A stretch of 64,000 nucleotides of DNA from assembly GCA_964610175.1 (NCBI GenBank), contig CAZSVE010000003.1, forward strand, positions 2,193 to 66,192, read 5' to 3'. Positions within the stretch are counted from its first letter, which is position 1. Each line of letters opens with the position of its first letter. Of this stretch, positions 8,438 to 63,520 are shown in pieces. Made by a program: the position numbers and the translations under genes. The notes below the pieces were generated by a model. The model saw only the letters and a program-made list of their open reading frames with translations, was not told where the DNA came from and made no database searches. Origin of the DNA: an uncultured Thiotrichales bacterium. GTDB taxonomy: Bacteria > Pseudomonadota > Gammaproteobacteria > HK1.

Positions 8438-8550
8438 TAAATAAGTATATTCAAATGATGATGATAAGCTTAAAATTCTTGCTTTAGCAATTTGCGGCGA
8501 GTCGATCGAACCGGCAGTCCGAGGTTTCCTTCGAGCGAGAGGACCGTTTC

Positions 8551-28997: not shown

Positions 28998-28999
28998 GA

Positions 29000-29099
29000 C
29001 TAGCGAGGCTTCGCCTCGGACCAATGAACCATAATCCTGCGCTAGTAAAGAACCGTTAGAACTTGGCTCATTTGTAAAGCTGAGCGGGAAATAAACAAA
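29000..29099 (+). repeat. F1, copy (1 of 3 in this gap)
   Basis: Reads CTAGCGAGGCTTCGCCTCGGACCAATGAACC...TTTGTAAAGCTGAGCGGGAAATAAACAAA. Confidence 0.85.
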
Positions 29100-29102
29100 T
29101 TA

Positions 29103-29207
29103 AAAGCTTCGCCTCGAACCGATGAGACATGATTCGGTAGTAGAGTAAAATCAGCGTGTTGTAAAACTTGATTCATTTGGGAATGCCGAGCGGGAAATAA
29201 AACAAAA
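29103..29207 (+). repeat. F1, copy (2 of 3)
   Basis: Reads AAGCTTCGCCTCGAACCGATGAGACATGATTCGG...GGGAATGCCGAGCGGGAAATAAAACAAAA. Head to tail with the previous copy. Confidence 0.85.
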
Positions 29208-29295
29208 TATTGGCAGCATAAATGATGCAAGAAATCACATTTTCCGATTCCGTGAGTGAAAAAGCGAACTTTTTCATCATCCTGATAGTGGAAGT

Positions 29296-29405
29296 CTGGC
29301 GAAGCTTGTGCTCGAACCGACAACGCATGACCCGGTATTGGCAAAGCGAGATTGGCGCCTTGTAAAACTTGATACATTTGTGAAGATGAGCGGGAAATAA
29401 ACAAA
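29296..29405 (+). repeat. F1, copy (3 of 3)
   Basis: Reads CTGGCGAAGCTTGTGCTCGAACCGACAACGCATGACCCGG...TGTGAAGATGAGCGGGAAATAAACAAA. Confidence 0.85.
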
Positions 29406-29564
29406 TTAGCTCTATCCTTCTCTTCGATGGCTTGCGCTTCTCCTCGATGATCTTCCTCTTTGCATTCGGTGCACCATTCCAGGGTAGCGCGGTTCCGGCG
29501 GGTTGGGATATATTTTTCGAAACAAGATCCGAAGAGACGACAAAGAAGGAGGGTTCGAGAGAAA

Positions 29565-30770: not shown

Positions 30771-30798
30771 CCCTGGCATGGCAACAACAAATGAGTCA

Positions 30799-30898
30799 CT
30801 GGCGAGGCTGCGCCTCGGACCAATGAAGCATGCTTTTGTATTAGTAAAGCACTCTTGAAATTCGATCCATTTGTAAAGCCGAGCGGGAAATAAACAAA
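30799..30898 (+). repeat. F1, copy
   Basis: Reads CTGGCGAGGCTGCGCCTCGGACCAATGAAGCATGC...TTTGTAAAGCCGAGCGGGAAATAAACAAA. Confidence 0.85.
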
Positions 30899-31062
30899 TC
30901 ATGTTGGTGCACAATCATATGGGTGGTACCCTGGAACCTTCCGGAAAGGACGAAGGGGCTACGCGCGCCCTGATCGGGGCCGGAAAGCTACTGGGAATCA
31001 TCGCATGGGATCATCCGATTATTTCGATGTTTCCTTTTTCACTAGCCGTTTAAGCACAAGTG

Positions 31063-45274: not shown

Positions 45275-45632
45275 CTATCCGATTCCTTTTCCCGGCTGTA
45301 CCCGTTCCGGTTTCCGACGATAAACCCGCTGGGTGGTGCGTGGGTCCGCGTGGGTAAGAAGGGCCCTGGCATGCTCCAGGGTCTCGGCGTCGGAAGCGCA
45401 TTTGGCGCGCAGATCGTGCTCCGTGAAGCGATTGTCCACCTTCGTCTCGGCGAGCACTTTATTTATTTCCGGCCATGAAGCGCTTCCACATGGACTCCCA
45501 GCCATTGGCGCTGCCCTTCTCCTCGTTGACATACCCCCGGCCGTCCCGGGTGCAGGAAAGGAATGGAGCGATATCCACCGGACGCGCGGCCAACGCCCCG
45601 TCCACGGTGGCCCGCAGTTCCGGGGTCCATCC
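45275..45632 (-). pseudogene. Tyrosine recombinase/integrase remnant (5'-truncated and frameshifted)
   Basis: The C-terminal catalytic region is readable (RFTEHDLRAKCASDAETLEHARALLTHADPRTTQRVYRR). The preceding segment (GWTPELRATVDGALAARPVDIAPFLSCTRDGRGYVNEEKGSANGWESMWKRFM) is in another frame. Homology stops at the F1 repeat at 45633. Confidence 0.7.
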
Positions 45633-45743
45633 CTAGCGAGGCTTCGCCTCAAACCGACAAGGCATGGTCGAGTATTGATAAAGCGAGATTGGCGTCTTGT
45701 AACACTTGATCCAATTGTGAAGCTGGGCAGGAAATAAAAAAAT
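45633..45743 (+). repeat. F1, full-length copy
   Basis: Reads CTAGCGAGGCTTCGCCTCAAACCGACAAGGCATGG...TTGTGAAGCTGGGCAGGAAATAAAAAAA. Confidence 0.85.
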
Positions 45744-45756
45744 AGCAGTACGAACG

Positions 45757-47257: not shown

Positions 47258-47457
47258 ATTTTGTTTATTTCCCGCTCGGCTTGTGCTCGATCCGACAAGG
47301 CACGATTCGCCTGGCTCCCGAGCTTCTGGCTTGGGAGCATGGATCGTGGAAGCCCCAGCTTTCGGAAAAGCCTCCCAGTCTCCCGCTTGGGGGGCAAGCG
47401 GAGCTGGCGTTTCGTGAAATCCGGCTCATCGGCAAAGCCGAGCGGGAAATAAACAAA
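47258..47457. repeat. F1-derived composite (reverse 3' module + forward 5' fragment + unrelated insert + forward 3' module)
   Basis: Reads ATTTTGTTTATTTCCCGCTCGGC | TTGTGCTCGATCCGACAAGGCACGATTCG ... | ...CGTGAAATCCGGCTCATCGGCAAAGCCGAGCGGGAAATAAACAAAG. Confidence 0.7.
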
Positions 47458-47497
47458 GTAATAATTCCTTCGGTCCAACGTGATATCCACTGGAATT

Positions 47498-49951
47498 GCC
47501 ATGTCTTTTTCTTTACGCAAGCCACTTGAGCGAAGAAGTCCTCGTGAAGTCATCCTGATCGTGTCGGCGGCGGTGGTGTTGTATTTTTTGCTTTCCCTGA
47601 TGACCCATCATCCTAATGATCCCGGTTGGTCGCATAGCGCCGAAATCGAACGCATCGAGAATAGTGGTGGCCCGGTCGGTGCCTGGATCGCCGATCTGTT
47701 TTTTTATCTCTTTGGCTATCCGGCATACCTGTTCCCATTGTTGCTGGGTGTCATTGGTTGGTTGATATTCCGATTGTCCGGCGAAGGGGGTCGGTCCAAT
47801 CCGTGGTTTGTCATCGTTCGGGGTAGCGGATTTTTGCTGACGCTGATGGCGAGCTGCGGACTTGCGGCGACCCACTTCGGCGGGAGCGAGGTACTACCGG
47901 TGGATAGCGGGGGGATGTTGGGGAAGGTAATCGGTATCGGCCTGTTCCGGTCGTTCAATCCTCTCGGTGGAACGCTTGCGTTGCTTGCCATGTTTCTGAC
48001 AGGGATCACCCTGCTTACCGGTGTCTCCTGGCTTTGGCTGATGGACAATACGGGACGTTGCACATTGTTCCTTGCCGATAAGCTCCAGCGTGTCATTTCC
48101 ATCGGGCACGAATATTACCTGTCGAGCGGGCTCCGCGACACCCAGGCGGAGCTGGGTCGAACCGCGGGCAGGAAGCTCATGGGATTTCTCCAGGAGAAGA
48201 TCGGTGACGGGAAACCGCCGCAACCTCGCATCGAACCCGGTGGTATCGGGCCACTGACGTTCGATCCCGACGTGGATATAAAGGAAAAAAGGCAGTACAT
48301 GGGAGGCGGGCACCGCGTGGAAAAGCGGGGTGAGCAACGGTCATCCACGTCCCGGGAACAGCCGTCCCGGGGGCAACCATTCAAGCCCAGGGAACAGTCG
48401 TCGAAATCCCAGGAAACCATTTCCGGGGGCGCCTTGCCGCCCATTTCCCTGCTCGATCTCCCCGAAACCCCGATGCACACCGTCACCGACGAGGCATTGG
48501 GGGACATGTCGCGACAGGTGGAGGAAAAGCTCGGCGACTTCGGGATCGAGGCCCAAGTCGTGGCGGTATACCCGGGCCCCGTCATCACCCGCTTCGAGGT
48601 CGATCTCGCCCCGGGAACCAAGGTGAGCCGGATCACCGCGCTCGCCAAGGATCTTGCCCGCTCCCTCTCCGTGATCAGCGTGCGCATCGTGGAAGTAATC
48701 GCGGGAAAGAGCGTCATCGGTCTCGAATTGCCCAACGAGCAGCGCGATCTGGTCAGGTTGAGCGAGATACTCCATTCCCACGAGTACAAGAACTGTATTT
48801 CGCCACTTACCCTGGTATTGGGAAAAGACATCGCCGGGCGTTCCGTGGTGGCCGATCTCGCCGGTATGCCCCATCTCCTGGTGGCGGGAACCACCGGCTC
48901 CGGGAAATCGGTGGCCATCAACGCCATGATACTGAGCCTGCTCTATAAGGCCAGCGCCGATGACGTGCGCATCATCATGGTGGACCCCAAGATGCTGGAA
49001 CTCTCGGTCTACGAGGGCGTCCCCCATCTTCTGGCCCCGGTGGTCACCGACATGAAAGAAGCGGCGAACGCGCTTCGCTGGTGTGTCGCCGAGATGGAGC
49101 GCCGCTACAAGCTCATGTCCAGCCTGGGGGTGCGCAACATGGCCGGATTCAACCGAAAAGTTCGGGAGGCCAGCCGCGCCGGGAGGCCCATCCCCGATCC
49201 GTTCTATGCCCCTCCCCCCTGGGAGCCATCCTTCGATGAGGAGGATGGCGGTGATCCACCCGAGCCACCGACCCTGGAACCATTGCCCGCTATCGTCGTT
49301 ATCGTCGATGAGCTGGCGGACATGATGATGGTGGTCGGTAAAAAGGTCGAGGAACTCATCGCACGCCTCGCCCAAAAGGCACGCGCCGCCGGTATCCATC
49401 TCATCCTCGCCACCCAGCGGCCCTCCGTGGACGTGCTCACCGGCCTCATCAAGGCCAATATCCCCACCCGGATCGCCTTCCAGGTCTCGGCAAGGGTGGA
49501 TTCGCGCACCATTCTCGATCAAATGGGCGCGGAGCAACTTCTTGGGCACGGCGATATGCTCTATCTCGCCGCTGGCAAGCCCATGCCTACCCGTGTGCAC
49601 GGCGCCTTCGTGGCCGATGGAGAGGTACACAAGGTGGTGGAACATCTCAAGCAGCACGGGAGCCCCAACTATCTCGACGAAATCCTCTCGGGCGGCGTCG
49701 ATGGCGTATCCGAGGAAGGGGGCATCATGGGGGATAGCGACGACACCGAGTCCGATCCCCTCTACGATGAGGCGGTACGCATCGTTACCGAGACCCGGCG
49801 CGCCTCCATCTCCGGGGTGCAGCGGCGGCTCAAGATCGGCTACAACCGGGCGGCACGCATGGTGGAACAGATGGAGATTGCCGGTGTGGTAGGGCCCCTG
49901 GAATCCAACGGCAACCGCGATGTCCTGGCCCCGCCGCCACCGGAGGATTAG
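47498..49951 (+). CDS. ftsK: DNA translocase FtsK
   Basis: Start set at [10 protein letters not shown]. It has N-terminal TM helices, a Pro/Gln-rich linker, the motor domain (Walker [10 protein letters not shown], Walker [13 protein letters not shown]) and a C-terminal gamma domain ([26 protein letters not shown]). Confidence 0.95.
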
Positions 49952-50036
49952 CAAGATGCCGATCGAAAAGCCCTTTCATGGCTTCCACGTCTACCAATAG
50001 TGTCAATGCATATATTTGAAGAAGGAAGGATTGAAG

Positions 50037-51275
50037 ATGCGAGTATTCATGCTGCCGATACTTATTCTTACGTTTCTCACGTTTCCTGTCGCAAACCATG
50101 CGCTACCGCACAAATACCCGGATTATTCCGATCCGGTACCGGAAGGTTACACGGGAAAAACATTCCGCCTAAGTCAGGATTACCCGTCCTCCATGCCCAC
50201 CTCCGACCGCCCGTGGAAGGATATCGACTTCACGAAAAAGCCGAATGAGTACCTCGAAATCGTAAGAAAATATATCTATGAAGGCATGCGGGAAGCAAAC
50301 TGGGAGGTCGATAGAAATACCATCGGAAAATGGTATCACGTGCCTTGGATGCACGTCGGTAAAAATCCAAGAGAGTTCATCCATGGCATGACCCAGGAAC
50401 GCACATTGAATCCCGGAGACCTGGGACCAAGGCAGACGCGAAAGATTCAAAATTGGGCCGTCGGCTTCTACAACGACTATGGTGGATACACAATAGGGCA
50501 GGTTTGGAAAGACCCCACCAATCCCGATCCGGCTTCCGCCCGCTTCCCGACCGGCACGGTCGTCGCCAAGGTCCTGTTTACCGCAGCAACGGTCGATCAA
50601 ATCCCGGAACTGGCGGGAACCATACAATGGCAGGCCAATATAAACGCCACACTCGATAAAGACAGTCCAAAGAAGATCCAAATGCTAAGGTTGCTGCAAA
50701 TGGATTTCGGGGTACGGGACGCACGCGCCGATGGGACTACGGGGTGGGTCTTTGGTACATTCGTCTACGATGGCCGCGCCGATGGGGCCGACGGCTGGGA
50801 CAAAATGGTCCCCGTCGGTCTGACGTGGGGCAATGATCCCGGGATTACGCCAACCGGCGTTGCCAATGGCGCAACGCTCGAGGAAGTATTCTTGAACCCG
50901 GATGCGCCGGATTACGCAAGGAATCGATTAGGTTGGGCGGGTCGATTGAATGGCCCGGTGGATGATCCCGAGTCCTCGTGTCTCAGTTGCCACAGTACAG
51001 CGCAATGGCGGCCACAAGCCCAAATGACACCCATCGGAACGGAACGGGAACGCCTGCATTGGTTCCGCAACCTGAAACCGGATCAAGCCTTTACGGAGGG
51101 AGAAATCAGCCTGAATTATTCCCTGCAACTGGCGGCATCCATTCAAAACTTTTTCAATCCGAGTCTAAACCCGGCCATTCCAGCGAAACCGCGCCATCCC
51201 TCTCGGCCAAAAAAAGAAAAATACGATAAGAAAGATATCGATCCGTTCGATCTCGGCTATCCTATCGAGAGGTAA
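50037..51275 (+). CDS. Secreted hypothetical protein with a single C-terminal CxxCH motif
   Basis: Signal peptide MRVFMLPILILTFLTFPVANHA. There is one haem-c-type motif, CLSCH (ESSCLSCHSTAQW). I recognise no family. Confidence 0.55.
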   Translation: MRVFMLPILILTFLTFPVANHALPHKYPDYSDPVPEGYTGKTFRLSQDYPSSMPTSDRPWKDIDFTKKPNEYLEIVRKYIYEGMREANWEVDRNTIGKWYHVPWMHVGKNPREFIHGMTQERTLNPGDLGPRQTRKIQNWAVGFYNDYGGYTIGQVWKDPTNPDPASARFPTGTVVAKVLFTAATVDQIPELAGTIQWQANINATLDKDSPKKIQMLRLLQMDFGVRDARADGTTGWVFGTFVYDGRADGADGWDKMVPVGLTWGNDPGITPTGVANGATLEEVFLNPDAPDYARNRLGWAGRLNGPVDDPESSCLSCHSTAQWRPQAQMTPIGTERERLHWFRNLKPDQAFTEGEISLNYSLQLAASIQNFFNPSLNPAIPAKPRHPSRPKKEKYDKKDIDPFDLGYPIER

Positions 51276-51319
51276 AACAGGTTTTCAGCGCAAAGATCAA
51301 AGGCATCGACCTTAAGCAA

Positions 51320-51375
51320 TTTTGGTTGAATTTATGCGAAATCATGCTTTGTCGGTTTGAGGCGAAGCTTCGCTA
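51320..51375 (-). repeat. F1, 5'-module fragment (reverse)
   Basis: Reads ...GCGAAATCATGCTTTGTCGGTTTGAGGCGAAGCTTCGCTAG. Confidence 0.7.
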
Positions 51376-51400
51376 GGGTTTCCAATTGGAGGATGATTCC

Positions 51401-52057
51401 ATGACCGACGAAGAACTCAAGGAACTCGTTGCCGGTTTACTGGTTTCTCAGCAGGAGATTTTAGTCTCTCAGCGGGGAAATTTGGCTTTTCAGAAGGAGA
51501 CAAACGCTGGTATTAGGGAATTGCGCGCATCCCAACGGGAAACCGATCGGCAAATGAAAGAAACCGATCGGCAGATGAAGGAGACCGATCTGCAAATCAA
51601 GGAGCTGGGCCGTCAGATTGGCGGGCTGGGTAGGAAGTTCGGTGGTTTTACCGAAGGTATGGCCTACCCATCCATGAAGAGGCTGCTGCGGAAGCGTTTC
51701 CATATGGAGACCATTACCCCACGGGTAGAGATATCCCGAAACGGCAAACACATGGAGTTGGATGTGCTGGGCTATTCCAATGGCAAGGGAAATCGGGTCG
51801 TGGTCGTGGAGGTCAAGAGCCGCCTTACCCCGGAAGGCATCGATCGGATGGAGCGAACCATGACCCGTTTCGATGAATTTTTCCCGGAGCATCGGGAAAA
51901 GCGACGTTTCGGGATGATCGCGGCGGTGGATTTTTCCCCGAATGTGGAGATCCAAGCCCGTCGGCGAGGATTCTATCTGGCCCGTATTCAGGACGAGTTG
52001 TTTGTCCTGCAATCCCCGGAATCATTTGAACCTCGCTATTTCGGTGGCGTGTCATGA
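51401..52057 (+). CDS. DUF3782-type PD-(D/E)xK nuclease-fold protein with N-terminal coiled coil
   Basis: GGAGGA lies 8 nt upstream of the ATG at 51401. Repeated ETDRQMKETDRQMKETDLQIKELGRQIGGLGRKFGGFTEG. The nuclease-like core is MELDVLGYSNGKGNRVVVVEVKSRL (D...E-x-K). Confidence 0.68.
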   Translation: MTDEELKELVAGLLVSQQEILVSQRGNLAFQKETNAGIRELRASQRETDRQMKETDRQMKETDLQIKELGRQIGGLGRKFGGFTEGMAYPSMKRLLRKRFHMETITPRVEISRNGKHMELDVLGYSNGKGNRVVVVEVKSRLTPEGIDRMERTMTRFDEFFPEHREKRRFGMIAAVDFSPNVEIQARRRGFYLARIQDELFVLQSPESFEPRYFGGVS

Positions 52058-52249
52058 GCAGCGTTGCACCTCGGGCCGAAATAATGGAAACCAAGGGCTG
52101 TCTCGGTCTCTCGACAGAATATCGGGATCGCGGCATTCTCCTCGGCTGGCGATTGATATTTTTGCCAACCGATCCATCGAGAGGCCTGGAAGTGGGCAAG
52201 GTATGGGTTTTCGGTGTTGATCGAGAGAGTTCCGAACCCGAACCATATC

Positions 52250-52354
52250 CTGGCGAAGCCTCGCTTCGAACCGATGAAGCGTGATTTGATATTAGCAAAA
52301 TCAGTGTCTTGTAGAATTTGACTCGTTTGCGAAAATGAGCGGGGAATAAACGAA
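52250..52354 (+). repeat. F1, copy
   Basis: Reads CTGGCGAAGCCTCGCTTCGAACCGATGAAGCGTGATTTG...TTTGCGAAAATGAGCGGGGAATAAACGAA. Confidence 0.8.
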
Positions 52355-52646
52355 GCAATGCCCCGTGGAAATCGATTATCAGAACCTCGACGCTCCCCGG
52401 TAATCCCCCTCTCCCCCGAAGAACCACCCCACGACTTCTTCTCAGGTAGCGCCGCCAGCGGCGAGAATCATTCTCCGTTGTCATCTCCACCGGAAGAAGA
52501 CATCTTCGGATTCCACGGGAATATTCGCTTCCCGGTTTTTTGCCGCTGTATGTGGGCAGGCGGATCGGCGGAAAGGATCGTTTACTATAGGCGGGAAAGA
52601 CCGCATGGAACACGCCACGATAAGACACACATGACGAACCAAAAAA

Positions 52647-53786
52647 ATGCGACTGAAATCCGTTGAATACACTGAACGCCAAGGTACGCTCCAGGAGTGG
52701 ACGCTGCGCGGATTGACCCTGGAGGATATCAACCTGCTGGTGGGCAAGAACGCCTCCGGCAAGAGCATGATTCTTAATATTATCCACGGGGTTGCCCATG
52801 GAATTGTCGGCAGGCGCCCGCCGCCTACCCATGAACATTTTACGTTTGTATTCGACGAAAACGAGCTGGAAACCAGATACGAGTTAGGAGCCGAGAATGG
52901 AAAGCTCGTTTCTGAATGCTTTACGGTGGACAACGAGGTCAAGCTGGAGCGCGGCCCAGGGGGCGTAGGCAGAATCCATGCCGAGAAGGAAGGAAAATTT
53001 ATCGAGTTCCAGACCCCGGAGGACCAACTGGCTATCGCTGCCCGACGCGATACCCTCCAGCATTCGTTCTTCGAGCCGATGAGTCAGTGGGCCGATTCGC
53101 TGTATTTCTATGCGTTCGGTACCCCGTTGGGGAAAGATCGCGGGGCGGTACTCACCGATGATATATCGGGCGTGGATTCCAAGGATCCATCACAAGTAGT
53201 CGCTATTTTTCACAAAGGAAAAAGGCAATTCGGCGACAAATTCATCGATGCGGTGCGGGAAGACTTCAAGGTGGTCGGCTACGCCATCGACGACATCGGA
53301 CTCACGACGCCTCTTCGTTATATGGGAATGAATGCGCCAATCTCTGGTAGCGAATTGTTGGTGATCTATGTCCAGGAGGCCGGCCTGCCAGGGATTACCG
53401 AGCAAACCGAAATGTCTCAGGGAATGTTCCGCGCCCTGTCTCTCATCATCCAGATCGATTACGCCGTCCTCGTCGGCACGCCGAGCTGCATCCTCATCGA
53501 CGATATCGGCGAGGGACTGGATTTCGAGCGCTCCGTGAATCTCATCGATGTCCTGATAAAAAAGGCCAAGAACTCCGCCGTGCAGCTCATCATGGCCAGC
53601 AACGATTCCTTCGTCATAAACCATGTGCCTTTGGAGGTCTGTGCCTTTGTCGACCGACAGGACAACCATGTGGAGATCCGGAATTATGCCAACTCCAGGG
53701 AGATCTTCGACCGCTTCCAGTTTACCGGCCTCAACAACTTCGATTTCCTGGCCTTCGATTACCTGCGTGCGGAGGTCGAGGAATGA
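52647..53786 (+). CDS. ABC/AAA-type ATPase (AAA_21/AAA_15-like, SMC-fold)
   Basis: 379 aa. Walker A LLVGKNASGKS, signature-like MSQGMFRALSLI, Walker B SCILIDDIGEGLD. There is a long insert between Walker A and the signature, as in OLD/AbiL/PARIS-type ATPases. Confidence 0.8.
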   Translation: MRLKSVEYTERQGTLQEWTLRGLTLEDINLLVGKNASGKSMILNIIHGVAHGIVGRRPPPTHEHFTFVFDENELETRYELGAENGKLVSECFTVDNEVKLERGPGGVGRIHAEKEGKFIEFQTPEDQLAIAARRDTLQHSFFEPMSQWADSLYFYAFGTPLGKDRGAVLTDDISGVDSKDPSQVVAIFHKGKRQFGDKFIDAVREDFKVVGYAIDDIGLTTPLRYMGMNAPISGSELLVIYVQEAGLPGITEQTEMSQGMFRALSLIIQIDYAVLVGTPSCILIDDIGEGLDFERSVNLIDVLIKKAKNSAVQLIMASNDSFVINHVPLEVCAFVDRQDNHVEIRNYANSREIFDRFQFTGLNNFDFLAFDYLRAEVEE

Positions 53787-54574
53787 ACGGGTCCGAGGTG
53801 AATAAGTCGATGGTCAATAAGCTGGCCATCTTCGTGGAGGGCCGTACAGAGCAGATCTTCGTGGAGAGATTGGTTCGCTTCCTCGGGGAGAGTGTAGATC
53901 TGGCCATCCGCGTCGATGGCGCGGAAGGGGGACGACACAAACCTCGTCGTTTTATCCGGATGAGCGGAACCAGGGAAACGGAGGGATATGAGTTCTTCGT
54001 TCTCATCGTGAATTGTGGCCAGGACGCACGCGTCAAATCGGATATTCTGAAACGCTACAACCGTTTAGTCAGCCAGGGCTACCGCTACATCATCGGAATC
54101 CGCGACGTCCATCCCCATGACCGGAAAGATACCCACCATATTCGGCAAGGATTCCAGTTCGGATTACCCACCACGCCATGCAAGCCGGTCTTGATCCTGG
54201 CCATCATGGAGATCGAGGCTTGGTTCCTGGCCGAATACGCGCACTTTCCCCGCATCCACCCGAGCCTCACCAGGGCGCGAATCGGACGGGAATTCGGCTT
54301 CGATCCCGCCGAGGACGACATGCAGCTTCGCGACCACCCGGCCAGGGATCTGGAAGCCATCTACTTCCTGGAGGCAATCCCCTACGCAAAGAGCCGCGAA
54401 AACGTGGAACGAACCGTGGATAGCCTGGATTTTTCCCGTATCCGAGACGAGGTGGCGGCACGGATCGCCGATCTTGCAAGATTGACGGGGCTGATTCGGG
54501 CCTTTTTCACGTATTCCGAACAAACCGACAAGGTGTGCGATGAGTCCCTCCCTCGACCACGGCTGTCTGTGTAG
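53783..54574 (+). CDS. DUF4276-like (Toprim-like) protein
   Basis: 263 aa. Its start overlaps the ATPase stop (ATGA at 53783-53786). N-terminus LAIFVEGRTEQIFVERLV, acidic block IGIRDVHPHDRKD and MEIEAWFLAEY match my recollection of the DUF4276 pattern (VEGxTE...EFEAW). The stop codon TAG is supplied by the first bases of the F1 repeat at 54572. Confidence 0.68.
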   Translation: MNGSEVNKSMVNKLAIFVEGRTEQIFVERLVRFLGESVDLAIRVDGAEGGRHKPRRFIRMSGTRETEGYEFFVLIVNCGQDARVKSDILKRYNRLVSQGYRYIIGIRDVHPHDRKDTHHIRQGFQFGLPTTPCKPVLILAIMEIEAWFLAEYAHFPRIHPSLTRARIGREFGFDPAEDDMQLRDHPARDLEAIYFLEAIPYAKSRENVERTVDSLDFSRIRDEVAARIADLARLTGLIRAFFTYSEQTDKVCDESLPRPRLSV

Positions 54575-54683
54575 CGAGGCTTCGCTTCGAGCCCACAAGG
54601 CATGATCCATGCGGCTGGTGAAGCAAAACCGGTGTTTTGTAAAACTCGACTTGTCTGCGAAGCCGAGCGGGAAATAGACAAAG
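54572..54683 (+). repeat. F1, full-length copy
   Basis: Reads GTAGCGAGGCTTCGCTTCGAGCCCACAAGGCATGATCC...CTGCGAAGCCGAGCGGGAAATAGACAAAG. Confidence 0.85.
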
Positions 54684-55252
54684 TAGGCGCATCATCGTGG
54701 AGATCTGAAAAGGCCGGGCAATGGGATGTCTGACCGGAACTGACCCTGGAATCGGTGTCGGCATGGTCCCCGATATCGCGGTCTGTGAGGAGGCTGCGCT
54801 CCAGTGGGATTTTCGGGAAGATGCCATCGAAAGATGTCATGGAATGCGCCGTGTTTCCAAGGCGGGTCATGGAGGTGATCTCCCCCAGCCAATCCATCCA
54901 TGACCTGATGCAAAAAGCGGAAAAATTTCTACGGGCCGATATTCCGGACAATCTGTACCATAGAGTCGGAGGGAAGAATGATTATCATGGGATCGATTAT
55001 CGGAACAACCCCGTGTTTGCCACTGCCTATCTGGCCGAGGAAAACGAACATGAATCGATGAAATGGCTCGATGTCGAATTTCGGGATTTCTTTCTATGAA
55101 TTCGTGTTGTTTGTCGGTCTTTTCCCAGTAAGAAACCGCAATCTCCAGGAGTATCCATGACACCAATCGGATCGTCTCATTCCCTATCATGGGGTTCGCC
55201 ATATTCAGGGTCATATTCGGGACCATATTCAAGAGGGCATGCGCCTGGATAT

Positions 55253-55981
55253 ATGCCTCCTCGCCCATGCCGATACCGTGGGCGGCCTTCGACGGCAGTG
55301 CAGGTTTTCCTGCTTCTATGCTGCGTTCTATCGTTCCTGTGTCCTATGCCGGGTCGCGCCGAGACCGATGCCTCCCCGGTGATTTTGGAGCACCTGAACC
55401 GGTTTCTCCAGGAGGTCGACACCCTGGCGGCGAATTTCGAACAGGCCCTGTTCGATGAGGAAGGGCAATCCCTGGAGGATTCCAGGGGGATTGTGTATCT
55501 GGCGCGCCCGAAACGGTTCCATTGGGCATACGAGGAACCCTATGAACAGACCATCGTGGCCGATGGGAAGCGGGTATGGTTTTATGACAAGGACATTGCC
55601 CAGGTCATCGTAAAGCCCTGGAATTCCTTTTCACCGGACACCCCCATTGCCCTCCTGACCATGGCCCGACCTTTGGAGGAGATCTTCGTTGCCAGGGAGA
55701 TCGCGCCTGAGGAAATGGCCATGGGGGCGAGGTCTTCACGGCAATGGGTCCGGTTGACGCCGAAATCCTCGGAGGCCACGTTCGTCGACATCAGGCTGGG
55801 GCTCGGCAAGGAAACCGTCGAGGTCATGGAGCTGTCCGACAGTTTCGGACAGCTAACGCGGCTTACGTTCTCGAAGGTAGTCACCAATCCGAAATTGGAT
55901 CCCAAGATCTTTTCCTTCACGCCACCGGAAGGCACCGACGTGGTGGGCCTGGATGTCGAGGGTAAAAAATCGCATCCCTGA
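55253..55981 (+). CDS. lolA: Outer-membrane lipoprotein carrier protein LolA
   Basis: Track ORF 55157..55981, with the start uncertain. The mature part is collinear with LolA (LNRFLQEVDTLAANFEQ, GIVYLARPKRFHWAYEEPYEQTIVADGKRVWFYD, IFSFTPPEGTDVVG). Confidence 0.86.
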   Translation: MPPRPCRYRGRPSTAVQVFLLLCCVLSFLCPMPGRAETDASPVILEHLNRFLQEVDTLAANFEQALFDEEGQSLEDSRGIVYLARPKRFHWAYEEPYEQTIVADGKRVWFYDKDIAQVIVKPWNSFSPDTPIALLTMARPLEEIFVAREIAPEEMAMGARSSRQWVRLTPKSSEATFVDIRLGLGKETVEVMELSDSFGQLTRLTFSKVVTNPKLDPKIFSFTPPEGTDVVGLDVEGKKSHP

Positions 55982-56160
55982 CTCGGGGGACGGGGAGGAC
56001 AGGATCGATACCGAATATCGGTCCGGAAGGCCCACGGGAAGGTCTCGGTGGTTGGCGCAAGTTGGCCCCGAAAAATTCCCGACATACGCCGAGAGGTTCC
56101 GCGCCGACTCTTGTTTCAGCTACTCTTACAGGAAATTCGTGAACGCAGGATAGAAAGAAA

Positions 56161-58806
56161 ATGAAAGATCGTTACTCCCCGCAACAGATAGAAGCCCAAA
56201 TACAGCAGCAGTGGGAAGCAGCCGACACATTTCGGGTCATCGAGGCCCCCGGGCGGGAAAAATTCTATTGCCTCTCCATGTTCCCATACCCCAGCGGACG
56301 CCTGCACATGGGACACGTGCGCAACTACACCATCGGGGACGTCATCGCTCGTTACCAACGCATGTTGGGGAAAAACGTCCTGCAACCCATGGGTTGGGAC
56401 GCCTTCGGCCTCCCCGCCGAAAACGCCGCCATGGCCAACCAGGTTCCCCCCGCCGCCTGGACCTACAAAAACATCGACTACATGCGCGCGCAACTAAAAA
56501 GGCTCGGGTTCGGGTACGACTGGCAGCGGGAACTTGCCACCTGCCGCCCCGACTACTACCGCTGGGAGCAATGGTTGTTCACCCGGCTTCTGGCCAAGGG
56601 CCTCGTCTACAAAAAGAGCGCCGAGGTCAATTGGGACCCGGTAGACAAAACCGTATTGGCCAATGAACAGGTGGTGGACGGTCGTGGTTGGCGATCCGGG
56701 GCCATCGTCGAGCGCCGCGAGATCCCCCAGTGGTTTCTGCGCATCACCGCCTATGCCGAGGAACTCCTCGCCGAGATCGACCAGCTCCATGGCTGGCCGG
56801 AGGCGGTGCGCACCATGCAAAGAAACTGGATCGGCAAATCCGAAGGGGTGGAATTCTCCCTCGCCATCCATGACGAATCACCCGGAGAAGAAGAACCCAT
56901 CCGGGTCTACACCACGCGCCCGGACACCATCATGGGCGTCACCTTCGTCGCCGTATCCGCGGGACATCCCCTGGCGCGCAAGGCCGCCGAGCATGATCCC
57001 GACATCGCCGAGTTCCTCGCCGAATGCCAGCGCACCGACACCTCCGAGGCCGCCCTGGAGACCATGGAAAAACGCGGTATGCCACTCGGCATCGACGCCA
57101 TCCACCCCATCACCGGTGGCAAGGTACCGGTCTGGGTCGCCAACTTCGTGCTCCAGGGCTACGGCACCGGGGCCATCATGTCGGTACCCGCCCACGACCA
57201 GCGGGACCACGACTTCGCCCGGAAATACGGGCTTCCCATCGTGCCGGTGGTGTTTCCGAAAGATCCCCGTGACCCGGGGGGGCAAGGATCGGGCCAAAAT
57301 CCGGACGTCCGGGATTGGGATTTCGAGCAATCCGCCTTCGTCGAAAAGGGCATCCTCGGGAACTCCGGCCAATTCTCCGGGCTCGACTCCAAAGAGGCCT
57401 TCGGGCGCATCGCCGACTGGCTCCAGGTGCGCGGCAAGGGGCAGCGCAAGACCAACTTTCGTCTCCGGGACTGGGGCATCTCGCGCCAGCGATACTGGGG
57501 CGCGCCCATCCCCGTCATCAACTGCCCCGCCTGCGGGGTGGTCCCGGTCCCCGACCAGGACCTCCCCGTGCTCCTCCCCGAAGACGTTCGGCTCGGCGAC
57601 GGAAGCTCACCCATCAAGGGCGACCCGGCATTCTTCGAGACCACCTGCCCCACCTGTGGCGGCAAGGCCGAGCGCGAAACCGACACCTTCGATACCTTCA
57701 TGGAATCCTCCTGGTACTACGCCCGCTACGCCTGCCCCGACCAGGACCGGGCCATGCTCGATGAAAAGGCCGACTATTGGCTCCCGGTGGACCAGTACAT
57801 CGGTGGCATCGAACACGCCATCCTGCATCTCCTCTACGCCCGCTTCTTCCACAAGCTATTGCGGGACGCCGGATTCGTTACCAGCAACGAACCCTTCGCC
57901 AACCTCCTCACCCAGGGCATGGTCTTGAAAGACGGCGCCAAGATGTCCAAATCCAAGGGCAACACCGTCGACCCCGAACAGCTCATCGAAAAATACGGCG
58001 CCGACACCGTGCGCCTTTTCGTCATGTTCGCCGCCCCTCCGGACCAGGCACTGGAATGGTCCGACAGCGCCGTCGAGGGTGCCTTCCGCTTCCTGCGTCG
58101 CCTGTGGCGGCTGGTGGCCAGTCATGTGGAGGAAAATGGTGACCGTCATTTCGGCAGGGATCGCCGGGAGCAAGTAGAAGGGACGGCAACAAACGACGCC
58201 CAAAAGGAACTGCGACGACGCATCCACGAAACCATCGTCAAGGTCAGTGACGACATCGGACGGCGCTACACCTTCAACACCGCCATCGCCGCCATCATGG
58301 AACTGGTCAATGAATTGACCCGTTGGCAGGAACGCGGGGTCCAATCAGCATCGCCGACACCAACACCAACGCCGTCGTCGAGACCATCCCCGGAATCGTC
58401 GCCGAAATCATCCGGCGAGCCATCGGCAGAGGCCCCAAAGGCCCCAGCCGGCGAGACCTCGAAACGGGCGCTGCTCCAGGAAGGCATCGAGACCGTCGTT
58501 CTCCTCCTCTCCCCCATCGTCCCCCACATCACCGCCGCCCTGTGGCGGGAACTGGGACACCCCGAACCCATCATCGATGCCCCCTGGCCCAAGGCCGACC
58601 CCGACGCCTTGCTGCGCGACCAAATCACCCTGGTGGTGCAGGTCAAAGGTAAGCTCCGCGCTCAGGTGACCGTGGCCGCCAATGCGAGCCGGGAGGAAGT
58701 GGAACAGGCGGCGCTCGCCAATGAAAACGTCCAAAAGTTCATGGAGGGAAAGCCGGTCAGGAAGATCATCGTGGTGCCGGGGAAGTTGGTGAATGTGGTG
58801 GTGTGA
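56161..58806 (+). CDS. leuS: Leucine--tRNA ligase
   Basis: 881 aa. HIGH-type motif ([15 protein letters not shown]) and KMSKS ([10 protein letters not shown]). Collinear with E. coli LeuRS apart from a Pro/Ser-rich insert near residue ~730. Confidence 0.97.
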
Positions 58807-58847
58807 AGAGGTCGACTCTCGCGTCTTTGCGTGGAAACGAGCGAATA

Positions 58848-59368
58848 TGAATAAGAAGCATATTTATCCGATATTGGGAGTCATTGGTTCTCTTGCATCG
58901 ATAGTGGCTCTATTTTTAGCCTTTTATGGTAAGGTGGATAGTCTCGCTATAAAAATCAATGGTAACGATAACCCAATTAATGCCAATCGCATTAGTGATG
59001 TTCAAGGAAATGTAATAATAAATCAATCATCGGAAACCAATGTGACGGGACAATTCCATGTCCCTACAAATTTGTATGGCCTTACTTATCATCAGGCTAG
59101 GAAAGAATTACTCGGGAAGGGCTGGATTCCTAATAAAAGACATTGGTTACACGGTGATACAGTCAATATGAAAAGTGGTAATGGTCCGATTTTTTGGAAA
59201 AAAGGTTATTTTGAGCTTGATTCGTGTAGTGGCACTGGCTATGCGTATTGCAGGTTTGAATTTTTTGATCCAAGCGGGAGAATTCTAGTTATCATTACGG
59301 AGGGTGAAGAATGGAGCAAGGGAGAAGATATACACGCAACAGTTGCGCGAGTGTATTTTGAGAATTGA
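58848..59368 (+). CDS. Hypothetical membrane-anchored protein
   Basis: Start set at MNKKHIYPILGVIGSLASIVALFLAF (TM helix). The region is low in GC. I recognise no family. Confidence 0.5.
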
Positions 59369-59475
59369 ATCGATTATTTTTAACATGTGTGTTCAGCTAA
59401 CCACGACGCTATTGTTCCCTTCGTGTCGATTAACCCATGATATTAGTCGCTGAAGACGAAAAAGTGAAAATTCAA

Positions 59476-59727
59476 ATGCCAACGATACTTGTTCTATTTG
59501 GATGGCGTCTTTTTTTCTATGCAAATGAAGGAAATGAACCTATCCATGTACATTGCCGAAAAGGAGGTATGGAATGTAAATATTGGATAGACGATGAGAA
59601 TTTCGATATTCAGGAAGCGTATTCTTATGGAATGTCGACAAGGGATAAGAAACAAATACGAAAAATAATATTCGAACACTTCGATTACATCGTGGATCAA
59701 TGGAATGTTTTTCAGGAAAGGCGATAA
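59476..59727 (+). CDS. DUF4160-family protein
   Basis: MPTILVLFGWRLFFYANEGNEPIHVHCRKGGMECKYWI is the characteristic DUF4160 N-terminus. Confidence 0.75.
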   Translation: MPTILVLFGWRLFFYANEGNEPIHVHCRKGGMECKYWIDDENFDIQEAYSYGMSTRDKKQIRKIIFEHFDYIVDQWNVFQERR

Positions 59728-59729
59728 AG

Positions 59730-59987
59730 ATGAAAAAGTTTCATAAAGTAGAAAATGCGCGGTTCGAAAAGGGCGTTCTCAGTCTTCGTGTCGATGACAT
59801 CGACATCAGAAGAAACTTGAATGAATTATCTTCCACGCTTGCCAATGCAAAGGAAGCGGAACAAAAAGAATTCGAGATTTCACCTTCCGGGTATGGTATC
59901 CATTGGCCTCTGATCGATGAAGATATTTCAATAGACGGCCTTCTGGGTATTGCGCATGGTCCGGGTGAGAACGAAAAGGGCGCGTAA
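59730..59987 (+). CDS. DUF2442-family protein
   Basis: It starts 2 nt after the DUF4160 stop. The C-terminal FEISPSGYGIHWPLIDEDISIDGLLG is the DUF2442 signature. Confidence 0.75.
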   Translation: MKKFHKVENARFEKGVLSLRVDDIDIRRNLNELSSTLANAKEAEQKEFEISPSGYGIHWPLIDEDISIDGLLGIAHGPGENEKGA

Positions 59988-60130
59988 CTTAGAAATAGAA
60001 GCGGATCACTTCCGGCTATTGAATGATGCCGGGAAACCCTATCTTTAATCCGCCGGAAGGATTCGATATCGTGGATTCCCGCAAATCGGAACCTTGCCAG
60101 GGCCGCTTGATGGCGGGGTTTCTTGTTCAC

Positions 60131-60213
60131 GTATCGGAAAAAGAATTCTGAAGAACCGATGCTGGAATTCGGACTTACCCCCTTTGGACCCTGACGCGAA
60201 GCGCTAACAAATA
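60131..60213 (+). repeat. F2, copy (diverged)
   Basis: Reads GTATCGGAAAAAGAATTCTGAAGAACCGATGCTGG...CCCTTTGGACCCTGACGCGAAGCGCTAACAAATAAC. Confidence 0.75.
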
Positions 60214-60259
60214 ACAACATACCGGCCCCATCGATCGAGGCCCCGTCGAGGTAAAAACC

Positions 60260-60457
60260 ATGCGATACACCGTTGTGCTGGAACCATCCGAAGAGGGATA
60301 CGCGGTCTCCGTGCCGGGATTGCCCGGCTGCCATTCCCAGGGAAATACCGAGCAGGAAGCCTTGAGGAATATTTCCCATGCCGTTTATGAATATCTGGAG
60401 GTTGTCAGGGAACTGACGAATCACAAGATGGTTAGGCAAATCGAGGTTGGGGGTTGA
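60260..60457 (+). CDS. hicB: HicB-like (UPF0150) antitoxin, copy 1
   Basis: MRYTVVLEPSEEGYAVSVPGLPGCHSQGNTEQEALRNISHAVYEYLE is the typical HicB N-domain. It lies upstream of a HicA-like gene. Confidence 0.8.
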   Translation: MRYTVVLEPSEEGYAVSVPGLPGCHSQGNTEQEALRNISHAVYEYLEVVRELTNHKMVRQIEVGG

Positions 60458-60460
60458 ATA

Positions 60461-60673
60461 TTGCCTAAATTTGTTGGCATCAATCACCTCGATGCGGTAC
60501 GGGCCTTGAAGAAGGCGGGGTTCTGGGTGGCTCGTCAGGGAAAACATATCGTCATGACCAACGGCGCCCGAATCATCACGATTCCTCGTCATAACCCCGT
60601 CAATGCAATCACCATGGGGAATATTATTCATGACGCGGGACTGACCAAGGAAGAATTCAAGGGGTTTTTGTGA
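60461..60673 (+). CDS. hicA: HicA-like (YcfA) mRNA interferase toxin, copy 1
   Basis: 70 aa with a TTG start. AVRALKKAGFWVARQGKHIVMTN...ITIPRHNPVNAITMGNIIHDAGLTKEEF matches the HicA pattern. Confidence 0.8.
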   Translation: MPKFVGINHLDAVRALKKAGFWVARQGKHIVMTNGARIITIPRHNPVNAITMGNIIHDAGLTKEEFKGFL

Positions 60674-60770
60674 AGAAGTCTCATAGAAGGGGTAAGCGAA
60701 GTGCGTCCATCTTCATTGGTCTCTCTCCAGCTTTAATTATCGTATCTTCATACTAGGTGAAGGTAATAGC

Positions 60771-61939
60771 ATGATGAAAAGAGTGTGCATATATTGCAAT
60801 AAAGAAAAGCCGAAGGATGAATTCTCTTTAGAACATATATTTCCGGATGCATTAGGCGGAGCATTATGTTCGGATGTATTCAAAACAAGAAGGGTATGCA
60901 GGCAGTGTAATTCAATTTCCGGTCTATTCGTAGATGGCGCTCTTATCAAGAATTTCTTTATTCAGAACGACTTGGCGGAGTCTGCGCTGAATTACATAGA
61001 TCTGGAAAAACCAGCCTCCTTACCACTCAGATATATGGGACCAGTCGATAACCTTACGATAGGTGACGATTTATCATGTGATTCATGGTTTGGGCCTCAT
61101 GGTGGCCTAATTTATCATAGAAGGAAAAAAGCGGATACGAAATATGACACAATAGCAGGTGGAAATCCCATCGATAATAAGAAGTTTAGGGGCGAGATAT
61201 ATATCTTCGCTCAAAATGAGGACATGTATTGGAATAAAGTACTGCTATTGTCAGCATATATATATTTCAAGCATGCACGCCGTATTTCAGGAAACTTTCC
61301 AGAATCTTCGGTAACTTTTGACAATAACGGTGAACGGCCATATTTCGATGAACCCACGGAAAATGAAAAGGCGTTTTTGGAAGAGATCAAAAACATTCAA
61401 GGGAAAAAACACGAAGGGAAATTCGCTGTTCAAATAGGCTTTGAACAACGTTTCCTGTGCAAATTGCGTTGGCTTTTGGGACCAATATACTTGGGGAGCA
61501 ATTCCTTGCATCGGAATACGCGACAAATCTTAGAAACGCATTCTGGGAAAAAGATGTCAACCGAGGGAAAATACATGGTGTCGATTTTTCCCACTTCTTC
61601 AACGGTCTTGGTTCTGAATATCCTATGAAATTGTTTACCTGGGATGGTGTCCACACTATTCTGATTTATCCGACGGACGATGTACTATTTGGGTTTATAT
61701 TTCTCTTTGGGAAGAGAACGATGAGTATCCCTATCGCCAAGGATCGGGATCTATGGAAAGATAAAATAACTCATCCCCAGGTATATGTTATATGCCAACC
61801 ACTGGGTAAATTCGTCGGCCCAATCTCCCTTGGAGATTTTCCCGCCCATCGAACCGGGGATGCACCAATTAGCGAACTCGAAGAGATAGAAAAGAAGCAC
61901 TTCGATCCAAGCACTTTGCCAAAGATCACTCAAGTTTAA
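60771..61939 (+). pseudogene. HNH endonuclease-domain protein, split by one frameshift (or sequencing error)
   Basis: N-terminal HNH/Zn motif [25 protein letters not shown]...CRQCNS in ORF 60771..61628. The continuation ([19 protein letters not shown]...) is in ORF 61457..61939. The frames switch near 61455-61470. Confidence 0.7.
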
Positions 61940-61981
61940 CGATATTTCCTCGTCCCCACGCCCCTTGCAGCCAGGAATCCA

Positions 61982-62503
61982 TTGTCATTAGATAGAAAAA
62001 CTCCAACCCAACAGGAACCCACAACCATACCCTACCAAAACATCGACGCCTCCCTTTCTCCCGAGGATATCAAGGCCATCAAGGATGCCTTTGCGCTCAT
62101 CCAGGAAAAACTCCCCTTCCTGATCAACCTGACCCCCGAGGAGCGGCGATCCTTGTTCAAGACCGGGGTCGATAGTGTCTCCTTCATCGAGAATGCCCTG
62201 AATGCCGCCCAGGACCACCCGGATATCCTTCCCGCCACGTTCAAGACCGAGGAATTGAAGGGCGATGTGGCCCTTTTCGGCGTGATGACCGACATCGGGA
62301 CGATTGCCGCGTCGGTGGCATCGGAGATCGATGATACGCGTCTCGCGGTCGGCAGCGAGGCGATGGAGAAATCGACCCAAATCTATAATTACGTGAAGAC
62401 GGTGGCCAAAACCACGCCGGGCCTGAAGCCGGTGGTCGACCAGTTGGGTCAGCGTTTCAAAAAAGCGGGTAGACATAAGAAACATGACGATCCTAAGGAA
62501 TAA
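61982..62503 (+). CDS. Conserved-looking hypothetical protein
   Basis: 173 aa with a TTG start. The pattern LTPEERRSLFKTGVDSVSFIE...DDTRLAVGSEAMEKSTQIYNYVK resembles an uncharacterised family I have seen in diverse bacteria. I can assign no function. Confidence 0.5.
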   Translation: MSLDRKTPTQQEPTTIPYQNIDASLSPEDIKAIKDAFALIQEKLPFLINLTPEERRSLFKTGVDSVSFIENALNAAQDHPDILPATFKTEELKGDVALFGVMTDIGTIAASVASEIDDTRLAVGSEAMEKSTQIYNYVKTVAKTTPGLKPVVDQLGQRFKKAGRHKKHDDPKE

Positions 62504-62882: not shown

Positions 62883-63520
62883 CCCAGGGTTGCCGCGAAG
62901 CGGCTACCCTGGGTAAATGGCAGGTACACAACACAACCCCAACGGGGTTGCGTCATGAAATGCCAAAAATACCGGAAACAATACCGCCATGGCACAATCC
63001 TTATCGTCCGTTTACGTGCACCTGGTGTTCTCGGTGAAAAACCGCGAGCCTTTTCTGAGGGACGCGGGGATTCGTGGGGAAATGCATGCCTTCTTGGGCG
63101 GTATCGCGAAAAGATTGAACTGCCCGCCAGTCATTACCGGAGGGACGGAGGATCACGTTCATCTGCTGTGCCGATTGAGCCGAACCGTTTCACAAGCCGA
63201 TTGCGTCAAGGAACTAAAGCGCGTCTCCGCCATTTGGATCAAACAACGCGACCCCACGCTGGCGGGCTTTGCGTGGCAGGGAGGATACGGGGCCTTTTCG
63301 GTCAGCGCGTCCAACCTGGCGAGTGTCCGTGAATACATTGCCGAACAGGAAGCGCATCATAAAAAATGGAATTTTCAGGACGAATACCGGGCGCTTTTGC
63401 GCAAACACGGCATTGCATGGGACGAAGGATATGTTTGGGATTGATTATTACACAACCCCGTTGGGGTTTGTTCTCCCCTGTTTCACCCTCCCAGGGTAGC
63501 GGCTTTGCCGCAACCCTGGG
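62883..63520 (+). mobile_element. IS200/IS605-family (RAYT-like) Y1 transposase gene with symmetric flanking hairpins
   Basis: On the left are CCCAGGGTTGCCGCGAAGCGGCTACCCTGGG (62883-62913) and CAACCCCAACGGGGTTG (62934-62950). On the right are their inverted counterparts CAACCCCGTTGGGGTT (63453-63468) and CCCAGGGTAGCGGCTTTGCCGCAACCCTGGG (63490-63520). Confidence 0.7.
62989..63444 (+). CDS. tnpA: IS200/IS605-family Y1 (HUH) transposase homologue
   Basis: 151 aa. HUH motif EDHVHLLCRL, WQGGYGAFSVS and REYIAEQEAHHKK. No tnpB follows it. Confidence 0.88.
   Translation: MAQSLSSVYVHLVFSVKNREPFLRDAGIRGEMHAFLGGIAKRLNCPPVITGGTEDHVHLLCRLSRTVSQADCVKELKRVSAIWIKQRDPTLAGFAWQGGYGAFSVSASNLASVREYIAEQEAHHKKWNFQDEYRALLRKHGIAWDEGYVWD

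Follow-up and report, generated by a model that had tools for sequence, protein, structure and literature searches.

What do two overlapping genes, A and B, do at positions 52647-54574 of a 64,000-nucleotide stretch of DNA from an uncultured Thiotrichales bacterium (contig CAZSVE010000003.1 of assembly GCA_964610175.1; hereafter, the window)? A preliminary description of this DNA had read them as a candidate defence module that joins an ATPase to a Toprim-like partner. We find that they probably represent a divergent clade of the PADLOC candidate system HEC-01, a combination of AAA_21 and DUF4276 proteins, and that they are related to Mad3-Mad4, AbiL and PARIS. Most likely, we infer, the pair is an anti-phage or abortive-infection system, and we hold it to be reasonably probable that A and B work together as the sensor ATPase and the nuclease effector of a defence module.

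Both genes lie on the forward strand and were delimited as open reading frames (ORFs). Gene A (52647..53786) encodes an ATP-binding cassette (ABC) ATPase of 379 amino acids, and gene B (53783..54574) a DUF4276-family, Toprim-like putative nuclease of 263 amino acids. As initially described, the two ORFs share an ATGA at 53783-53786, which is the stop of A and a possible start of B, and the peptide motifs named at that time, three in gene A and three in gene B, are all present. A Shine-Dalgarno-like GGAGG (53769..53773, forward strand), read from the sequence within the 3' end of A and 10 nucleotides 5' of the ATG of B, is apparently a signal for the translational coupling of the two genes. An alternative start of B, the ATG at 53810 (with GAGGTG just before it), has to be considered as well: most B homologues start about nine residues later than the ATG at 53783, i.e. 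near residue 10, so the exact start is uncertain. Depending on this choice, the genes either overlap by 4 nucleotides or are spaced by 23. Both are real genes, with homologues at E = 1e-100 and better, and there is no second copy of either in the window. About 100 nucleotides upstream of A, a terminator-like hairpin with a T-run (52516..52543, forward strand) suggests, as a pattern match only, that A and B are transcribed as a unit of their own; the search returned 6 such sites where 3.0 +/- 1.7 were expected.

A pattern scan with one genome per species revealed 322 B relatives among 185,579 species representatives (about 0.17%); the locus counts given here and below rest on the best 80 of these 322 loci. 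Among them, an A homologue lies directly upstream of B and on the same strand in 77 of the 78 testable genomes, which belong to at least 8 phyla and include Gammaproteobacteria, Planctomycetota, Cyanobacteria, Bacteroidota, Nitrospirota, Chloroflexota, Verrucomicrobiota and Patescibacteria. Among the carriers are cultivable organisms such as Acidithiobacillus ferruginosus CF3 and Anabaena azotica SJ-1. Tight coupling of A and B is likewise a family trait, since an overlap of 1-8 nucleotides is available in 47 of the 60 scorable loci of other genomes. The pairwise distances of A and B are correlated (r = 0.86; Mantel test, 0/2000), with a contribution from the shared species phylogeny. In total, the family comprises about 1,222 clusters at 50% identity, and 3624 homologues were found for A. 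No third conserved gene emerged from the 142 immediate neighbours of the pair in 75 genomes. A and B are therefore an obligate pair with coupled starts and a patchy distribution. With its variable neighbours, the lack of a third gene, no phage-borne and two plasmid-borne members, it has the traits of a self-contained, horizontally scattered accessory cassette. This accessory behaviour, i.e. the scattered distribution, the variable neighbours and the different loci that the pair occupies among Kentrum species, supports the defence reading.

The first partner, A, belongs to the ABC ATPases of the SMC/Rad50/PtuA type. Its score for Pfam AAA_21 is above the threshold (E = 4e-9, 37.4 bits versus a cutoff of 27), and its AlphaFold2 model is compact and of high confidence (pLDDT, a predicted local distance difference test score, 90.1). 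In a Foldseek search with this model against the PDB, the best matches were an SMC head (4i99), Rad50 (4ncj/3qkt) and PtuA, the ATPase of Septu and retron systems, with E-values of about 1e-11 and template modelling (TM) scores of 0.5-0.65. Together, the AAA_21 and structural matches bear out the SMC-fold ATPase that had been proposed for A. Walker A, Q-loop, ABC signature, Walker B and D-loop follow each other in this order on the ABC head fold. In an alignment of 28 A sequences, N35, A36, G38 and K39 are invariant within the Walker A motif GKNASGKS (residues 33-40; 52743..52766, forward strand), S257, G259, M260, F261 and R262 within the signature-like SQGMFRAL (residues 257-264; 53415..53438, forward strand), and D285, D286, E289 and D292 within the stretch ILIDDIGEGLD, which covers Walker B and D-loop (residues 282-292; 53490..53522, forward strand). 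The SxGMFR of the signature recurs in 69 of 78 loci.

Defence-related models recognize A with graded success; all PADLOC results in this study are matches to individual models. AbiLi fits best (2.2e-14), followed by AriA (1.2e-12), mad3 (1.6e-8) and HEC-01A (6.6e-8). These four models also match all or most members of the A family, AbiLi at 5e-20 on the family level; among the 28 relatives, 24 are matched by HEC-01A models and 22 by the mad3 model. In UniRef, A is labelled 'AbiEii toxin, type IV TA system'; this only repeats the description line of Pfam AAA_21, and we did not count it as evidence.

Two catalytic positions set A apart from canonical ABC ATPases: it has no catalytic glutamate after the Walker B aspartate and no switch histidine. 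The position of the glutamate is taken by Asp286, as part of a 'DD' that is found in 75 of 78 loci and is invariant in the 28-sequence alignment. At the H-loop position N319-D320 (53601..53606, forward strand; invariant in the same alignment), within ATNDRF, Asn319 replaces the switch histidine, with an Asn at this position in 70 of 78 loci; this position was assigned to the H-loop through its weak alignment with the 'SHDR' in an ABC-F protein. The same Asp and Asn residues are present in two distant plasmid-borne pairs, whose B proteins are only 30-35% identical. The Old protein of phage P2, by contrast, is canonical, with IDEPE at Walker B, STHS at the H-loop and DCD in its Toprim domain. 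Among ABC proteins, an Asp at the first of these positions and a residue other than His at the second are signs of a degenerate nucleotide site that hydrolyses slowly. Because both replacements are clade-wide, A probably acts as an ATP-binding switch with slow hydrolysis and not as a motor.

The second partner, B, is a DUF4276 protein by transitive homology. Though B alone remains below the threshold of Pfam DUF4276 (PF14103; E = 0.022, 15.4 bits versus a cutoff of 30.2), 24 of its 29 relatives at 38-83% identity match this family at E <= 1e-3, the best of them at 2.7e-10. B is 100% identical to a UniRef 'DUF4276 family protein' of Candidatus Kentrum sp. LFY, a symbiont of Kentrophoros ciliates, under which a protein identical to A is on record as well, and many of its relatives carry a precomputed PF14103 assignment. 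The same 24 relatives are matched by the HEC-01B models of PADLOC and four of the 29 by mad4, and no other PADLOC family is matched among them; on the family level, the HEC-01A and HEC-01B matches are distant, with best E-values of about 1e-8 to 1e-11. Neither B nor its 29 relatives match Pfam DUF4435 or the AbiLii/RloB models of PADLOC and Pfam.

In the AlphaFold2 model of B (pLDDT 89.2), four strand-helix units follow each other in a Toprim-like order and are accompanied by a beta-hairpin insert and a C-terminal domain of helices; the invariant residues E19/E23, D108 and E143/E145 are found at strand ends. Motif I, E19-G-R-T-E23 (53837..53851, forward strand; E19, G20, T22 and E23 invariant), is part of VEGRTE (residues 18-23) and is found as EGxTE in 79 of 80 loci; E19 follows right after strand 12-18 of the model and is the conserved Toprim-type glutamate that closes strand 1. 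Asp108 (54104..54106, forward strand; invariant) marks the end of strand 3 and is the lone aspartate at the Toprim DxD site; it belongs to the acidic block RDVHPHDRKD (residues 107-116), of which RD[VLI]x is retained in 78 of 80 loci. After strand 4, the acidic pair of MEIEAW (M142-W147, with EIEAW at residues 143-147; 54206..54223, forward strand; M142, E143 and E145 invariant) recurs in 73 of 80 loci, and this invariant MExE may supply further acidic ligands.

The evidence for a Toprim fold is borderline. The best whole-length PDB match of the B model, ranked second in the Foldseek search, is PH0156 (2p62; E = 2.7e-3, probability 0.99, TM 0.44/0.46), which a published analysis names as nearest in structure to the AriB of a lactococcal PARIS and labels as a TOPRIM domain of OLD nucleases. 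The top viral structural match is a RloB-like protein at a borderline E-value of 9e-4, and the literature places both DUF4276 and RloB in the Toprim superfamily (PMC12065111). Pfam OLD-like_TOPRIM reaches E = 0.1 for B and 5.8e-4 for one of its relatives, and a B-family profile found no match among all PDB sequences even at E = 10. Of the earlier assignment of B to a Toprim-related DUF4276 family, the DUF4276 part consequently holds on the family level, and the Toprim fold, as modelled, is weakly supported by fold and profile tests.

Taken as a pair, A and B resemble several known systems. The preliminary description was right about the architecture, given the domain identities and the conserved adjacency of an ABC-type ATPase and its Toprim-like partner, but its view that the combination is not among the named, validated systems is outdated: it is catalogued in PADLOC as the candidate HEC-01, an ABC ATPase with a TOPRIM-like protein (Payne et al.), it occurs as Mad3-Mad4, and HEC-01 representatives have been tested against phages. 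In a later preprint, one of them protects E. coli against at least one of T4, T5 and T7. In the paper on PARIS, AbiL and MADS3-4 are counted among the systems of the ABC ATPase + TOPRIM type, and DUF4276 serves as the label of a domain.

HEC-01, the Hma-embedded candidate 01 of PADLOC, is the closest of these systems. It shares the two-gene architecture, the gene order and an ATPase of the ABC type with our pair, whose relatives match HEC-01B (24/29) almost exclusively and HEC-01A in 24 of 28 cases. The two genes of the window are adjacent, as in HEC-01, and match its models in part (A at 6.6e-8, B at 1.5e-3). Unlike HEC-01 as first found, however, they are not embedded in an Hma system, and the matches are distant; none of the current HEC-01 models seems to derive from this clade. 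The Mad3-Mad4 pair of MADS, the methylation-associated defence system, likewise combines an ABC ATPase with a DUF4276 homologue (Mad4), and mad3 and mad4 models match weakly, but here the pair stands alone, with the methyltransferase and the other mad genes absent nearby. AbiL, which consists of the ATPase AbiLi and the RloB-domain protein AbiLii, provides the best PADLOC model for A, has the same layout of ATPase first and effector second, and finds an echo in the RloB-like viral match of B; B has, however, no sequence match to AbiLii/RloB models.

PARIS is also split into an ABC-type ATPase plus a Toprim-like effector. The generic AriA/AAA_21 model matches A, 2p62 links B to lactococcal AriB, and A and B diverge in step, as has been reported for AriA and AriB. 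Yet B belongs to DUF4276 and AriB to DUF4435, and A, at 379 amino acids, differs from AriA with its about 53-55 kDa. P2 Old and Gabija GajA, finally, join an ABC ATPase to a Toprim-type module as well, but as single fused polypeptides, whereas A and B are separate genes and remain so in 77 of 78 loci. Where Old has DE, THS and DCD, the A-B clade has DD, TND and a single Asp with MExE. In an hhalign comparison with P2 Old, the A profile aligned in the Walker A region alone (probability 5.4%, not significant).

Further insight comes from a second Kentrum LFY strain, in which the gene order around the pair is identical. FtsK, the P460-like protein and LolA, all encoded close to the pair, are 99.0-99.6% identical between the two strains, whereas A is 70.2% and B 82.5% identical. 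On the nucleotide level, this divergence forms a mosaic: identity is 98-100% in the flanks, drops to 61-76% at 52650-53450, i.e. from the start codon of A, rises to 92-97% in the Walker B-coding region (about 53460-53600), amounts to about 81% at about 53560-53700, reaches 95-99% at the A/B junction, falls again to 66-83% at 53810-54200 and recovers to 94-99% at 54200-54600, from the MEIEAW-coding stretch onward. Two divergent allele segments can thus be delimited by strain comparison on the forward strand, one covering about codons 1-270 of A (52647..53450) and the other about codons 10-140 of B, its catalytic core (53810..54200). Synonymous divergence (dS) is 0.6-1.6 in these blocks, and 1.3-1.65 for codons 41-120 of B, compared to 0.015-0.04 in ftsK, the P460-like gene and lolA, i.e. 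30-100 times higher; both alleles are intact, and their ratio of non-synonymous to synonymous divergence is 0.25-0.28. Moreover, the N-terminus of A in the window is closer to the allele of Kentrum FW (81%) than to that of the sister strain (65%).

Point mutation alone cannot explain this divergence, so the divergent segments were imported by recombination from divergent alleles. The crossovers lie in the most conserved motif-coding stretches. What was replaced are the N-terminal and insert region of A and the catalytic core of B, and what was retained are the C-terminal tail of A and the C-terminal domain of B; this pattern fits a turnover of specificity-determining parts, as at a defence locus, without proving it.

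From these data, a mechanism can be sketched. A would form ATP-dependent oligomers and, through its conserved C-terminal tail FKFTGLNNFDF and the conserved C-terminal helical domain of B, would keep the DUF4276 protein inactive. The variable N-terminal and insert region of A would sense a phage-derived trigger, upon which A would free or activate B, and B would then act as a metal-dependent nuclease that uses E19/E23, D108 and E143/E145. Throughout, A would serve as a slowly hydrolysing ATP-binding switch and not as a motor. In this sketch, the nuclease activity of B and the division of labour between sensor and effector are inferred. A bolder version is that the clade is mechanistically distinct, with A as a non-hydrolysing ATP-gated latch, B with a metal site of one Asp and an ExE, and recombination of sensor and effector core; we regard it as doubtful. 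If true, it would mean that crossovers occur at the Walker B and MEIEAW stretches and that near-clonal symbiont strains carry different specificities at the same locus.

Several observations weigh against a defence role or against its molecular details. The HEC-01 matches of the window proteins are weak, spanning only residues 251-348 of A and 6-31 of B. PADLOC models match none of the neighbouring genes in the window, and the 142 adjacent ORFs from 75 genomes are heterogeneous and mostly of housekeeping type; among the families listed for them, those of defence type are scattered and few, namely Uma2/PDC-S03, DRT, GajB, mad8, a type III methylase and a type II restriction enzyme. The idea that the pair lies in a context where defence genes accumulate, as initially suggested, found no support, and no clear defence island is discernible. 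Homologues are absent from 50,697 phage records and were found on 2 of 72,556 plasmids. On the side of B, the DxD after strand 3 that is typical of Toprim domains is reduced to a single Asp, with a second one in just 2 of 80 loci; the Foldseek search against the PDB gave no match at E <= 1e-3, and its top 50 included no entry named as OLD or Toprim; and hhalign aligned its profile with P2 Old only at VEGxTE/VEGKTE, with a probability of 1.3%, which is not significant. The non-canonical residues of A, in turn, could mean that its role is non-enzymatic. Lastly, the HEC-01 representative tested by the discoverers of this system, who found it embedded in Hma systems, gave no protection against phages (Payne et al.).

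An alternative reading is a selfish addiction module, in which B would be a nuclease toxin and A its neutraliser, and which would persist and spread through post-segregational killing, with no meaningful contribution to phage defence. Such a toxin-antitoxin (TA)-like element would account for the compact two-gene operon with coupled translation, for the scattered occurrence at unrelated genomic sites and for an A that, with Asp and Asn at its catalytic positions, resembles a binder more than a hydrolase; PARIS, too, has been described as acting like a type II TA system. Plasmids, however, are the usual home of addiction modules, and the pair is nearly absent from them (2/72,556). The strong turnover of alleles in what is presumably the sensor region is more in keeping with an arms race than with simple addiction, and TA behaviour is compatible with defence, as PARIS demonstrates. 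We therefore consider an addiction module unlikely.

Likewise, A and B could be a DNA repair or maintenance pair that acts on host DNA, in analogy to the SMC-like ATPase RecF with the Toprim protein RecR or to SbcCD/Rad50-Mre11. SMC and Rad50 heads are, after all, the nearest solved folds for A, the top NCBIfam match of A is RecF, limited to the Walker A region, and housekeeping genes are frequent neighbours, among them a DNA_alkylation repair gene that adjoins the pair at 8 Bacteroidota loci. A maintenance function is nevertheless hard to reconcile with a pair that is present in about 0.17% of species representatives, occupies differing loci even within one genus and, between strains that share 99% identity elsewhere, diverges to a species-level degree; in its model, A also appears compact and without a coiled-coil insertion of the SMC/Rad50 kind. 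This makes a repair pair highly improbable. Still less probable is that the pair belongs to a larger system of the restriction-modification-like kind, for example MADS or Hma, whose partners, among them a methyltransferase, would be encoded elsewhere, for although the mad3 model matches 22 of 28 A relatives, the mad4 model 4 of 29 B relatives and mad8-matching neighbours occur twice, and although HEC-01 was first found within Hma systems, the pair in the window is not adjoined by a methyltransferase, a helicase or another mad gene, and no such gene recurs among the 142 immediate neighbours in 75 genomes. A two-gene defence module thus remains the reading that we prefer.

The surroundings of the pair differ between Kentrum genomes. 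In the window, ftsK (47480-49951) is followed by a P460-like CxxCH protein (50016-51275), a DUF3782 protein (51386-52057), A, B, lolA and leuS, so that the pair does lie between ftsK and lolA, as noted earlier. In Kentrum LPFa, the order is ftsK, P460-like gene, an 85-amino-acid ORF, A, B, Uma2 and lolA, with the Uma2 gene (L088, 8749-9162) overlapping the 3' end of B. A gene of this family, which encodes a putative restriction endonuclease (PADLOC PDC-S03), adjoins the pair in 6 of the 142 neighbours of other genomes, which may simply reflect the abundance of Uma2 in cyanobacteria. In Kentrum eta and MB, the pair resides at another locus and is directly followed by a gene of the ADP-ribosylglycohydrolase family (L086, 8776-9561, and L083, 8829-9188), which may be a lineage-specific third component. 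A search of other Kentrum species for a ftsK-lolA site that lacks the pair found none, because lolA of the MB and TUN genomes is located elsewhere and not beside ftsK. Far outside this genus, a distant copy of the pair on the Bacteroides finegoldii plasmid NZ_OY725969.1 (L094, 4953-6744) is situated inside a capsular polysaccharide biosynthesis locus, flanked by a tyrosine kinase gene and a sugar transporter gene.

Among the neighbours in the window, the P460-like protein has 419 amino acids with a CxxCH haem-binding motif and scores 26.4 bits for Cytochrome_P460 (cutoff 27); its gene is directly downstream of ftsK in both Kentrum LFY and LPFa. The protein encoded next to the pair, for which a PD-(D/E)xK fold had been suggested, matches only DUF3782, and a D...EVK motif in it is compatible with PD-(D/E)xK; its orthologue in the second LFY strain has an additional DUF8196 match. 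Its gene contains three 21-nucleotide tandem repeats (51539-51601) that encode ETDRQMK heptads, and differs between the two LFY strains by a 42-nucleotide indel near 51456 and by a dS of 0.145, above that of the flanking genes. Downstream of the pair, the longest ORF for lolA (55157-55981; 274 amino acids) starts 63 codons upstream of the start that all orthologues share; position 55346 is probably the true start, and the resulting protein of 211 amino acids is 100% identical to a database LolA entry. LeuS is 91% identical between the two LFY strains, compared to 99% for its neighbours, and contains a low-complexity insert rich in Pro, Ser and Thr (58340-58441) that is unalignable between them and at which the blastn alignment breaks.

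The pair is bracketed by two copies of a repeat on the forward strand, identified by sequence comparison: the left copy (52253..52354) and the right copy (54574..54683), which starts at the stop codon of B, are 77% identical. The repeats of the preliminary description are therefore real, but they are not specific to the pair, because they belong to a dispersed, oriented intergenic family of about 110 nucleotides with at least 15 further copies across the window. A scan of the window placed copies at 1378-1492, 8325-8442, 10650-10830 (reverse strand), 23090-23314, 28998-29410, 30795-30905, 45630-45746 and 47406-47460, those at 23090-23314 and 28998-29410 being in tandem. The ends of the repeat are conserved, with CTGGCGAAGCTTCGC... 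at one end and ...GAGCGGGAAATAAAC at the other. A role of the repeats as specific cassette boundaries is ruled out by this dispersal and by the strain comparison, in which divergence starts at the start codon of A and the repeats are 98% identical. The family has no convincing consensus structure (-3.7 kcal/mol), and an Rfam scan of 49900-56200 identified no RNA family, its sole match being a chance-level mraW inside gene B. The right copy includes a further terminator-like hairpin (54614-54633; pattern match) downstream of B.

Beyond leuS, the window changes in character. A stretch of low G+C content (58800-62500; 38% versus about 60%) begins right after this gene and holds an HNH_5 endonuclease gene (60771-61628; Pfam E = 1.6e-15) that is possibly frameshifted into 61457-61939. 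Several other ORFs of this stretch have no family match, and none of its ORFs is recognized by a PADLOC model. A gene for an IS200-like Y1 transposase follows at 62989-63444.

What, then, does the pair mean for its family and its host? It is a divergent addition to a known candidate type and opens no new class of biology. Systems of the HEC-01/DUF4276 type are, however, widespread, the two published phage tests disagree, and current models overlook most of the A-B clade, which comprises about 1,200 clusters at 50% identity. Its conserved residues offer clear targets for mutation, namely K39, D286 and N319 in A and E19, D108 and E143/E145 in B. Finally, the two near-identical strains of the ciliate symbiont, with their different alleles of sensor and effector core, amount to a natural experiment that points to the parts under turnover.

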